A program made the position numbers and the translations under genes. A model generated the notes under the pieces. It saw nothing but the letters and a program-made list of their open reading frames with translations. It was not told the origin of the DNA and did not search any database. From positions 1,184,001 to 1,248,000 of the forward strand of contig CAVSGM010000002.1 of assembly GCA_963727485.1 (NCBI GenBank): a stretch of 64,000 nt of DNA, given 5' to 3'. Positions 1,405 through 8,053 of the stretch are shown piece by piece. The stretch's first letter is position 1. Each line of letters opens with the position of its first letter. This DNA is from an uncultured delta proteobacterium (GTDB taxonomy: Bacteria; Myxococcota; Myxococcia; SLRQ01).

Positions 1405-1965
1405 ATGGACACGGTGAGCATCGATACCGCCCGGCTCTGGATCTTCGTCTTCCGCGAAGGCGCCCTCTCGCCGGTGGGCCACGACCTGCGCCTCTCGGCG
1501 ACGGGCCTCGAGCTCGAGAGCGACGGGACGCGGTTTCGGGCGGCGGTGGACCTGTCCACCCTGCGGGTCGACGGGGTGATGCGCTCGGGGAAGCTCGACC
1601 CCCTCGGCCTCGACGAGGGGCAGAAGCACCAGGTCCTGGGGAACCTGCGCACCGGCGTGCTCCACCCCGACCAGCACCCCCACGCGGTCTTCGAGGGGGC
1701 GGTGACGAAGCGCGCCGGGGGCTTCGACCTCGCCGGCGACCTCGAGCTCGAGGGGCGGCGCCGGCCCCTGACGGTGCGCGTCCACGGGGGGCGGATCTGG
1801 CGCGGGGAGGTCACCCTCACCCCGAGCCAGTGGGGGGTGCGACCCTACCGGGCGATGCTCGGGGCGCTGCGCACCGCCGACCGGGTGGTGGTGCGCTTCG
1901 AGGTGGAGCCCCCGGCGGCGCTGCGGGCGGTCGCCGAGCCCGAGGCCGCCGCCGAGGCCTCGTAG
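1405..1965 (+). CDS. YceI-like lipid/polyisoprenoid-binding protein
   Basis: MDTVSIDTARLWIFVFREGALSPVGHDL...VLHPDQHPHAVF...AGDLELEG...SQWGVRPYRAMLGALRTADRVVVRFEV matches the YceI pattern. Confidence 0.75.
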   Translation: MDTVSIDTARLWIFVFREGALSPVGHDLRLSATGLELESDGTRFRAAVDLSTLRVDGVMRSGKLDPLGLDEGQKHQVLGNLRTGVLHPDQHPHAVFEGAVTKRAGGFDLAGDLELEGRRRPLTVRVHGGRIWRGEVTLTPSQWGVRPYRAMLGALRTADRVVVRFEVEPPAALRAVAEPEAAAEAS

Positions 1966-3506
1966 GCGGGCGCCCGGGCGGGCACCCGGCCGACCCCGAG
2001 CTCCGAGAGGGCGGCGTCGAGGCGGGGGATCACCGTCTCCCGGGTGTAGCGGACCATGTGGTGGCCCATCACCGCGTGGGCCACCAGGAACGGCAGGTGC
2101 CCGGGCTGCTCGGCGACGACCCGGCGCACCAGGCGCCGGTACCCGGGCCCGGCCCGGCGATCGAGGCCCACCCGGGCGGCCACCCGGAAGAAGGTCGCCA
2201 CGTCCTTGGCCATGGGCCGGCGCCGGCCGGGGACCGGGGGCGCCAGCGCCAGGTGACGCTCGACCCGCGCCCACCAGGCGTCCTCGGTGTAGAGCCCGGC
2301 GAGGAGGTCCCGGTAGCCGGCGATCAGGGTCGCCTCGTCCAGGGCCGGGGTGAAGTTGGGGCGGGCGAAGGCGTCGCCGGTGGCGGTGTCGGCGTCCTCG
2401 CGCAGGCGTCCCTCGGCGGCGAGGCGACGCCAGAGGGCGGTCCCCGGGAGCGCCGTGAGGATCCCCACCATGGCCAGGGGGATCGGCGACGCCTGGATGA
2501 AGCGCCGCTGGGCGGCGAAGACCTCGGGGCCGTCGGTGTCGAAGCCCACGATGAACCCGGACATCACCTCCAGGCCCGCGCGGCTGAGGTGCTCGACGGC
2601 GTCGCCGAGATCGAGGCCGAGGTTCTGGGTCTTGCCCGCGCACTTCAGCGACGCCTCCGACGGGGTCTCCAGGCCCACGAACACCGAGGAGAACCCGGCG
2701 CCGGTCATCGCCCGGAGGAGGGCGTCGTCGCCGGCGAGGTTGATGGTCGCCTCGGTGTAGAGCTCGAAGGGGTAGCCTTTGGCCGCCTGCCACCTGGTGA
2801 GCTCGGGGAGCAGGGCGCGCACCTGGGGCCGGTTGCCGATGAAGTTGTCGTCGACGAAGAACACCGAGCCCCGGTAGCCGGTGGCGTAGAGGGCCGTCAG
2901 CTCGGCGAGGACCTGCGCCGGGCGCTTCACCCGCGGCACCCGGCCGAAGATCTCGATGATGTCGCAGAACTCGCAGCGGTAGGGGCAGCCCCGCGAGTAC
3001 TGGAGGCTCATGGAGGCGTAGCGGCCCGGGACGAGGAGGTCGAAGCGGGGGATGGGGCTGGCGTCGATCCCCGGGTGGCCTTCGCCCTCGAGGCGCGCCG
3101 GGCCGCCTTGGCGCAGGGCGGCCATCAGCTCGGGGATGCGCCCCTCGGCCTCGCCCACGAAGACCACGTCGGCGTCGGCGAAGGCCTCGGGCGCGGTGGT
3201 CACCGCCGGGCCGCCGACGGCGACGCGCCGGCCCGCGGCCTTCGCCCGGGCGACCGCCCGGTGCATCGACGGCGCCTGGATCCGCATCCCCCCGACCAGG
3301 ACCACGTCGGCCCAGGCGAGGTCGGCGTCGGTGAGGGGCTCGGCGTTGAGGTCGACCAGGCGGCAGTCGACCTCCTGGGGGAGGAGCGCCGCCAGGGTGA
3401 GGAGCCCCAGCGGCGGCAGGGAGGCTCGCCGGCCCGCGAGCGGCAGGCCGAGCTGGAACCCCCAGTAGGTCACGGGGAAGGCCGGGTGGATCAGGAGGGC
3501 GCGCAT
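1845..3506 (-). CDS. B12-binding domain radical SAM protein (DUF4070-type)
   Basis: N-terminal PPLGLLTLAALLP cobalamin-binding domain; SRGCPYRCEFC (CxxxCxxC); VDDNFIGN; VFVGLET. The true end may be near 1962 (see findings). Confidence 0.92.
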   Translation of the reverse strand: MRALLIHPAFPVTYWGFQLGLPLAGRRASLPPLGLLTLAALLPQEVDCRLVDLNAEPLTDADLAWADVVLVGGMRIQAPSMHRAVARAKAAGRRVAVGGPAVTTAPEAFADADVVFVGEAEGRIPELMAALRQGGPARLEGEGHPGIDASPIPRFDLLVPGRYASMSLQYSRGCPYRCEFCDIIEIFGRVPRVKRPAQVLAELTALYATGYRGSVFFVDDNFIGNRPQVRALLPELTRWQAAKGYPFELYTEATINLAGDDALLRAMTGAGFSSVFVGLETPSEASLKCAGKTQNLGLDLGDAVEHLSRAGLEVMSGFIVGFDTDGPEVFAAQRRFIQASPIPLAMVGILTALPGTALWRRLAAEGRLREDADTATGDAFARPNFTPALDEATLIAGYRDLLAGLYTEDAWWARVERHLALAPPVPGRRRPMAKDVATFFRVAARVGLDRRAGPGYRRLVRRVVAEQPGHLPFLVAHAVMGHHMVRYTRETVIPRLDAALSELGVGRVPARAPAYEASAAASGSATARSAAGGSTSKRTTTRSAVRSAPSIAR

Positions 3507-3609: not shown

Positions 3610-7311
<3,702 letters not shown>

Positions 7312-7395
7312 CGAGAGCCTTTCGTGAAGGCCCGCCGCGCGCGACGGACCCCGTGGCCTTGAGAGCCAGGGGATCGGATCGCGGATCGGCCGCGG

Positions 7396-7472
7396 CTCTT
7401 TAGCAGGAACTTCTTCAGCGTCCCCGCTGGGGGGACCCCGCGCCCCTGCAAGCAGCCACAAATCGGCGCGGG
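7396..7472 (-). ncRNA. SAM-II-class riboswitch aptamer in the metH leader
   Basis: Minus strand reads CCCGCGCC-GATTTG-TGGCTGC-TTGCAGG-GGCGCGGG...CCTGCTAAAGAG. P1 is CCCGCGCC/GGCGCGGG; the conserved GAUUU, UUGC and GCUAAA motifs are present; pseudoknot GCAGG/CCTGC. It sits upstream of a methionine gene. Confidence 0.8.
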
Positions 7473-7502
7473 TGTATTCGTCTTGGGACCTACGATAGCG
7501 GG

Positions 7503-8053
7503 ATGCGGTCCCCAGTCAAGGCGGACGGGCCCCCGCCGCCCGGCGAGGCCCCGGGGCGCTGGCGCGGCTGGCGCTTCGGCCTCGCCGTCGCCGCCCTCAC
7601 CGGCGCCGGCCTCTTCCTGCGCCTGGTGTTCCTCGACCAGAACCCCCTCTGGTACGACGAGGCCTACACCTTCTACCTGGCCCACCAGGCGACCCTCGCC
7701 GCGCCGACTACCGGGCCGCGGTGCCGGTCCTCGAGGCGAGGCGCCGCCTCACAGAGCCGGTGCTCGTCTACCCCGGCCACCACCTGCGCCAGCTCGACTT
7801 CTACGGCCCCATCGCCTCGGCGGTGCCCCTGTGGAGCTCCGAGCCCACGCAGGACGCGGCGCGGATCGCCATCCGCCAAGGCGAGGTGCTCTGGCTGTTC
7901 GCCGCCACCGACGACGGGGGCGACCCCCAGGACGCAAAGCGGGTGCTCGAGGTCCTCGAGCGCCGCGCCCGGGTGACCTTCCACCAGGCGTTCTTCCACG
8001 TGACGCTCTACCGGCTGGTGGGCCGCCGCGGGCCGGCGGGATCGGCCGGCTGA
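7503..8053 (+). pseudogene. GT-C (ArnT/PMT, GT39-like) glycosyltransferase with a large internal deletion
   Basis: N-terminal TM plus LRLVFLDQNPLWYDEAYT motif joined out of frame near 7700 to a C-terminal ADYRAAVPVL...VLVYP...LWLF...VTLYRL segment; the multi-TM core is missing. Confidence 0.7.

Follow-up and report, generated by a model that had tools for sequence, protein, structure and literature searches.

A SAM-II-type aptamer with a hairpin-bearing L3 loop upstream of metH in a myxobacteria-like genome, and its relatives missed by Rfam

The SAM-II riboswitch, or metA motif (RF00521, SAM_alpha; Corbino 2005, PMC1273637), is described in the accessible text of that paper as an OFF switch located before Met/SAM genes, with the promoter just before P1. 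The available part of PMC3764141 gives the structure of the metX representative (2QWY) and a list of the conserved nucleotides of its SAM pocket. The closest families extend this architecture: in the accessible supplementary alignment of the SAM-II long loops (RF01726; PMC2864571), L3 has optional inserts of 30-50 nt, and many rows contain a contiguous UUGCAA/UUGCUAA helix.

Here we describe a SAM-II-type pseudoknot aptamer at positions 7392-7472 (minus strand) of the window, that is, of the whole 64,000-nt stretch of DNA analysed. The aptamer follows a sigma-70-like promoter and precedes a full-length metH. As an overall reading, we consider it rather likely that a SAM-binding aptamer turns metH off, most likely via translation initiation, and that its L3 hairpin is a tolerated insert. 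The element thus likely provides feedback control of methionine synthase in this genome, which standard annotation misses.

The aptamer, its gene and its lineage

The features of the locus are collected in Table 1. The hallmarks listed in the initial annotation (P1, GAUUU, UUGC, GCUAAA and the pseudoknot GCAGG/CCUGC) all map to the minus strand, with UUGC at 7451-7448, GCUAAA at 7404-7399 and the pseudoknot pairing GCAGG 7449-7445 with CCUGC 7407-7403. P2b is formed by UUGCAGG (7451-7445) and CCUGC-(U)-AA (7407-7400), with U7402 bulged, and P2a (GUGGCU/AGCCGC) offers 6 possible pairs. P2a passes the boundary drawn earlier at 7396, and the aptamer therefore spans about 7392-7472: the end at 7472 stands, the other end moves to the 3' strand of P2a. 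L3 comprises 30 nt (7436-7407), consisting of a hairpin followed by GAAGAAG, which may dock in the minor groove of P1 as the A-rich L3 of SAM-II does. The assignment as a SAM-II-type aptamer with a long, hairpin-bearing loop in the metH leader is upheld, and the genome is myxobacteria-like, with 28 MYXO-CTERM matches versus none in 14 control genomes.

Table 1. Features of the metH leader and gene, in window coordinates.
Feature	Position	Strand	Basis or remark
Sigma-70-like promoter TTGACT-16 nt-TATCGT	7492..7519	(-)	1 site; shuffles mean 0.0
P1 5' strand CCCGCGCC	7465..7472	(-)	motif mapping; P1 covariation in relatives
L1 GAUUU = G8, A9, U10, U11, U12 (metX numbering), triplex third strand	7460..7464	(-)	
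P2a 5' strand GUGGCU	7454..7459	(-)	pairs with 7397-7392; P2a covariation in relatives
P2b 5' strand UUGCAGG = U20, U21, G22, C23 + A, G, G	7445..7451	(-)	
P1 3' strand GGCGCGGG	7437..7444	(-)	motif mapping; P1 = 8 bp
L3 insert hairpin (P3) GUCCCC-CCAGC-GGGGAC	7420..7436	(-)	energies; strain variants fall in loop
Purine-rich L3 linker GCUGAAGAAGUU	7408..7419	(-)	A-rich linker at same place in relatives
P2b 3' strand CCUGC-U44-AAA-G = G42, C43, U44, A45, A46, A47	7398..7407	(-)	
P2a 3' strand AGCCGC	7392..7397	(-)	sequence; SAM_alpha consensus shows GCUAAAgAGGCC here
Long GC-rich hairpin of expression platform, no U tract	7340..7383	(-)	fold prediction
Hairpin GGGCCUU/AAGGCUC over putative Shine-Dalgarno GAAAGG (7323-7318)	7315..7333	(-)	predicted, 7 bp
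metH, cobalamin-dependent methionine synthase, 1233 aa, ATG 7311	3610..7311	(-)	PRK09490, TIGR02082 above cut-off

All pocket nucleotides are present, namely G8, U10, U11, U12, U20, U21, G22 and C23 on the 5' side and G42, C43, U44, A45, A46 and A47 on the 3' side; they comprise the ten nucleotides reported as completely conserved in L1 and P2b of SAM-II, plus G8 and G22. By eye, the core closely tracks the RF00521 consensus (GAUUUG...GCUUGCAg...GCUAAAgAGGCC). A descriptor that combines the core motifs with a P1 of at least 5 bp matches the 5.55 Mb genome once, at this element, and 110 Mb of third-order Markov sequence yields 0 chance matches. In an unconstrained fold, a long P2-plus-P3 helix takes the place of P1. 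Judged by its sequence, the SAM-II-type aptamer in the metH leader is real, and it very probably binds SAM.

The gene downstream had been named metH, which its product confirms with 1646 bits against NCBIfam TIGR02082 (cut-off 1011). The start codon at 7311, about 80 nt beyond the aptamer, agrees with the MetH N-terminus of a second genome of the same family (G003). The promoter-like site suggests a transcription start near 7485; the promoter is thus located just upstream of P1 in the 5' leader of a Met/SAM gene, as is typical of SAM-II. G003 has a promoter-like site (TTGACG-16-CATACT) at the same position and with the same spacing. At the leader of metK of the genome under study (G000:C2 near 948120) no SAM-II-type motif was found.

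Two further observations concern the neighbouring genes. A gene for a B12-binding radical SAM protein with DUF4070 (1845-3506, minus strand) begins 103 nt past the metH stop; it may be co-transcribed with metH and hence be under the same switch. On the plus strand, two short frames at 7503-8053 of the window diverge from metH and overlap its promoter. They have no Pfam or NCBIfam match; we take them to read like an N-terminal and a C-terminal fragment of a gene resembling those of membrane glycosyltransferases, possibly a deleted remnant.

metH is present in all four other genomes of the family. The G003 copy (L108:1489-1577) shares the core but has another L3 hairpin, together with G10, U47 and a U-tailed hairpin downstream, and G001 carries a canonical short-loop SAM-II before metH (30.7 bits, below the RF00521 cut-off). 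A search of G002 and G004 with the R1 model, which is built from relatives of the element (see below), gave no SAM-II-type match. We note that the G003 copy has changed at two reported pocket positions (U10G and A47U), yet has kept promoter, stems and terminator; this genome also carries a SAM-I (L305). The MetH proteins of the family are 51-68% identical to each other and 63% identical to a MetH from Burkholderiales (L133), whereas most MetH proteins of the class are about 40% identical to them. They are of a different type, perhaps acquired together with the leader.

Across the class, RF00521 matches 9 of 151 genomes (6 above cut-off) and SAM-I matches 14 of 151 (6 above cut-off). With these counts and a canonical SAM-II in G001, the strong surprise that the initial annotation saw in the lineage fades: the matches indicate that SAM-II is sporadic but established in the class, the lineage being unusual and not unique. 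Judged by their motifs, the genes that follow the 18 SAM-II-type loci examined in the class are presumably threonine synthase-like (11), homoserine dehydrogenase-like (3) and metH (3), and one has none of these motifs. Most matches of a loose pattern run on the phylum were at control level, and those in families f1 and f3 alone were examined further. A literature search, covering few subscription papers and excluding the supplement of PMC2864571 on SAM-II expansions, which may bear on novelty, found no description of SAM-II in Myxococcota or of the UUGCAG/CUGCUAA subtype discussed below.

Expression platform and output

If the structures of SAM-II and SAM-V are a guide, SAM would be bound in the major-groove triplex of P2b, its adenine at U44 (7402), its sulfonium at U11 and U21 (7461 and 7450) and its amino acid at A47 (7399). 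Binding would stabilise the triplex as well as P2a and so lock 7407-7392 into the pseudoknot. The putative Shine-Dalgarno sequence is found about 70 nt beyond P2a, and the AGAGCC strand is complementary to two downstream copies of GGCUCU. In the absence of SAM, the freed AGAGCC (7399-7394) might conceivably pair with a downstream GGCUCU and loosen the hairpin over the Shine-Dalgarno sequence; with SAM, this hairpin might stay shut.

The predicted cost of opening the ribosome binding site, bound minus free and for three 3' ends, is +2.7, +1.1 and +0.6 kcal/mol with Turner 2004, -1.8, -0.5 and 0.0 kcal/mol with Turner 1999, and +0.1, -0.4 and -0.1 kcal/mol with the Andronescu set. The relay model was therefore rejected as not robust, the direction of the cost differing among parameter sets, and since the cost rises under Turner 2004 only, the coupling step is a guess. 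The analogy with described SAM-II switches makes it probable that SAM switches metH off; translation is the preferred output, at roughly even odds.

The same SAM-binding aptamer might also act on transcription, by Rho-dependent termination or by pausing at the GC-rich hairpins, which we regard as possible but somewhat unlikely. Most SAM-II are transcriptional according to the accessible text of PMC6061858, the AUG is located about 80 nt past the aptamer, unlike in SAM-V, and folding gives no robust switch at the ribosome binding site. Furthermore, the metH leaders of G003 and of the Burkholderiales locus L133 end in U-tailed hairpins. In folds computed with Turner 2004 only, the hairpin before metH in G003 is present in the free and the bound state alike, and no antiterminator is predicted; in L133, the bound mimic contains the terminator and the free fold disrupts it. 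Against a transcriptional output, a search of 7200-7700 found no intrinsic terminator, neither hairpin of the window being followed by a U tract, and the putative Shine-Dalgarno sequence is covered by a hairpin.

It is improbable that the aptamer folds, and may bind SAM, yet is uncoupled from metH as a relic that has lost the terminator seen in G003. The missing terminator and the missing parameter-robust switch would agree with such a relic, as would the two of four family relatives (G002 and G004) that have no such element at metH. However, neither the pocket nucleotides nor the two helices are damaged, G003 retains the promoter spacing, and the listed changes inside the aptamer in three strain contigs are confined to the loop of P3, with none in the core. 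A working OFF switch, with translation initiation as its most likely target, remains the preferred reading.

The L3 insert and the Rfam models

The initial annotation had drawn the L3 insert as a GNRA tetraloop hairpin, CAGCG-GGGA-CGCUG. These letters are present at 7429-7416 (minus strand) and overlap the GUCCCC/GGGGAC stem at 7436-7420, so that the two stems are mutually exclusive. The latter is preferred by all four energy parameter sets: the GNRA stem has -8.4 versus -11.6 kcal/mol with Turner 2004 (GNRA probability 0.002), -8.6 versus -10.1 kcal/mol with the Andronescu set (0.03) and -8.4 versus -12.6 kcal/mol with the Langdon set (0.00). Turner 1999, a set that rewards GGGA, brings it within 0.3 kcal/mol of the alternative (-11.2 versus -11.5 kcal/mol, probability 0.22). 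The favoured stem begins directly after P1, as does the hairpin of G003, which is unrelated in sequence.

Contigs from close strains point in the same direction. Three of them span the hairpin (X2, X3 and X5; X1 and X4 do not span it, and X6 and X8 give no cover). In X3 and X5, which come from two studies, base 7426 is missing; X2 has a change at 7427 and one added base. All three break a pair of the GNRA stem and keep GUCCCC/GGGGAC, altering its loop alone, and none has a listed difference in P1, L1 or P2. The spanning contigs are single, with depths of 3.4-5.2, and each alone could be an error; the 7426 deletion is common to two studies and hence unlikely to be one.

The relatives described in the next section show how variable this loop is. 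Their L3 was analysed in 86 sequences, one incomplete sequence having been dropped, and among the matches listed its length varies from 8 to 41 nt, with 73 of the 86 reaching at least 20 nt. All 73 fold a hairpin (dG <= -3), and 57 of them beat 95% of shuffles; loops are not conserved, and the hairpin sequences are unrelated among the matches listed. A GNRA loop occurs in only 7 of these 73 (again among the matches listed), and the other 13 of the 86 have a short L3 with no hairpin. It is thus quite improbable that the insert forms a GNRA tetraloop hairpin which, by docking on a receptor, is a functional part of the switch; by the fold models, the GNRA hairpin was probably mis-drawn. The extra hairpin is, to judge from these comparisons, likely a tolerated, sequence-variable L3 insert and not a new device, and a hairpin in L3 is no new principle, being already known from P3 of SAM-V and from RF01726.

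None of the Rfam families matches the window at its gathering cut-off, and a scan of 7,900 down to 6,900 (6900-7900) at E <= 10 gave 8 weak matches to unrelated families, none of them a SAM family. Genome-wide at E <= 10, there is no match to RF00521 (SAM_alpha; its gathering cut-off of 36 bits is not reached), RF01726 (SAM-II long loops; 44 bits) or RF01826 (SAM-V; 41 bits). RF00162 (SAM-I), also searched genome-wide, finds nothing at the element, its best match (19.5 bits, E 0.26) being on another contig. The element is therefore not filed under RF00521 or any other Rfam family.

The extra L3 hairpin likely explains why standard RNA family models miss the element. For example, one locus is shared by G198 (L153) and G201 (L154) of family f3, its L3 having a 26-nt insert in G198 and none in G201, and Rfam matches only the short-L3 version of G201, not the hairpin-bearing one of G198. 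The insert alone can hence hide a SAM-II from Rfam. The gene downstream at this locus is, we assume, homoserine dehydrogenase-like. In 20 metagenome loci of the subtype, some with a short L3, the subtype motif was matched in none, and the sole SAM match by Rfam was to a separate tandem aptamer. As Rfam is silent on short-L3 loci too, the change to G10 and the altered core also hide the subtype.

The wider subtype and comparison with known classes

By its motifs, the element belongs to a UUGCAG/CUGCUAA subtype that Rfam misses and that is common before metK in Burkholderiales. That the Rfam SAM models miss a common SAM-II subtype is more interesting than the extra hairpin or the lineage. In its accessible part, an Rfam-profile survey reports SAM_alpha only in Rhizobiales and Rhodobacterales and states that metK is not under the control of SAH riboswitches (PMC4239095); the subtype could therefore fill a gap in betaproteobacterial metK regulation.

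A pattern made from the window and G003 copies found 8 loci among genome contigs, two of them real: the metK leader of Variovorax paradoxus (L131) and a metH leader from Burkholderiales (L133). The other six were rejected as chance or coding matches, and a scan of viral contigs gave 72 loci with no distinct match that had a P1 above 5 bp or looked real. With a relaxed pattern, at least 118 metagenome loci were obtained, and together with 4 genome loci 122 were examined. The strict motif is present in 99 of the 122, and in 90 of these the N-terminus of MetK or MetH is encoded within 500 nt (among the matches listed); of the 9 that have no Met gene, 4 had less than 50 nt of downstream sequence. 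Among the matches listed there are 95 distinct sequences, which combine metK with G10 (83) or U10 (1), metH with U10 (2) or G10 (1), or have no such gene (8). Where P2b has an extra G, CUGC is preceded by a C in 3 of 3 sequences, versus 3 of 83 where the G is absent (among the matches listed).

For 60 of the 86 sequences, with the window and G003 left out, an alignment (A1) was made in which 88.4% of cells pair. Its covariation score of 0.193 is reached by 0 of 500 shuffles, which give 0.089, although related sequences can beat shuffles without any structure, and all slid controls score lower. Two-sided changes occur in 4 of 8 pairs of P1 and 2 of 4 pairs of P2a, so that both helices covary among the relatives. 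P2b is invariant in A1 and fixed by the search pattern, and A1 hence says nothing for it. In the genome under study, the top match of the R1 model, built from the same 60 sequences, is the element (30.8 bits, E 6.3e-5; the next-best match has E 2), but the model is only partly independent because its members were found with the pattern from window and G003. The lack of a covariance-model hit, which had been named as grounds for refutation, is thus true of the Rfam models and not of R1.

R1 matches 7 of the 151 class genomes, with 5 real on inspection. Matches in G013, G196 (two), G131 and G099 were rejected, three being in reading frames and the others having no core motifs. In Burkholderiales, 74 of 121 genomes are matched, a count that includes canonical SAM-II and the unpublished genome G428; among the best 12 loci, 9 have MetK downstream within 600 nt.

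Several of these loci have a layout of their own. In L272, two aptamers form a tandem: a canonical SAM_alpha-like one with a U-tailed hairpin (92-165, 28.1 bits) and, about 130 nt further on, one of the UUGCAG type before metK (292-360). Paired R1 matches about 100-200 nt apart on one strand are also found in G519, G468, G407, G461, G484 and G508, which suggests that Burkholderiales commonly carry SAM-II-type aptamers in tandem. Two U10-type copies (L200:692-768 and L233:691-767) run from the 3' strand straight into GGAG, with ATG 14 nt after the core. This layout is SAM-V-like and translational; the downstream genes have no Met motif.

A more far-reaching view, tentative and rather improbable, is that the element represents an outlying myxobacterial copy of a widespread, unpublished subtype with a re-tuned pocket, which controls metK across Burkholderiales. 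If true, the U10/A47 copy of the window and the G10/U47 copy of G003 would be a natural pair for a shift in affinity or ligand, for example SAH tolerance. That the subtype senses a ligand other than SAM, such as SAH, or SAH together with SAM, or that its affinity is much altered, appears very improbable. It is true that 83 of the 87 distinct members linked to a Met gene are metK leaders with G10 (among the matches listed), and that G003 has U10G and A47U at positions which the accessible text of PMC3764141 reports as conserved in the pocket. However, the window copy has the canonical U10, U11, U21, U44 and A47, and the genes concerned, metK and metH, point to SAM feedback. Two further alternatives can largely be dismissed, namely that the motifs arose by chance and that metH has an N-terminal coding extension beginning at the in-frame TTG at 7461. 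An open frame does lead from 7461 to metH, but the simulated 110 Mb contain no match, the metH profile match begins at residue 5 after ATG 7311, and two single-base insertions in strain contig X2 would shift the frame.

The element closely resembles SAM-II. Both have an H-type pseudoknot with P1 and P2a/P2b, the motifs GAUUU, UUGC and GCUAAA, the pocket, the promoter and a Met/SAM gene. In contrast to SAM-II, where L3 has about 11 nt, the 30-nt L3 of the window copy carries a hairpin; the leader has no intrinsic terminator, and the model gives no match. Its lower P2b is a contiguous UUGCAGG/CCUGC with no unpaired base between the U of the 3' strand and GC, whereas the RF00521 consensus reads UCGCUAAA.

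The SAM-II long loops (RF01726; Weinberg 2010, PMC2864571, as far as its text is accessible) have the same core, and UUGCAG/CUGCUAA is the G-C counterpart of their UUGCAA/UUGCUAA helix. They differ in that they come from Bacteroidetes and marine samples, are AU-rich with a very short L1, and have no match in this genome. SAM-V (RF01826; Huang and Lilley 2018, PMC6061858, in its available sections) likewise has a P3 stem-loop directly after the 3' strand of P1, a P2 duplex in which the SAM-pairing U alone is bulged, and the same triplex pocket. Its Shine-Dalgarno sequence is inside P2a, whereas the AUG of the window is about 80 nt downstream; its P1 has 4 bp versus 8 bp here, and its model has no match. 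The betaproteobacterial metK leaders share the arrangement CGCC-GA[G/U]UU ... UUGCAG-GGCG ... optional hairpin ... CUGCUAAAG with the element. They are mostly of the G10 type and linked to metK, whereas the window copy has U10, an extra G-C pair in P2b, metH as its gene and a myxobacterial lineage.
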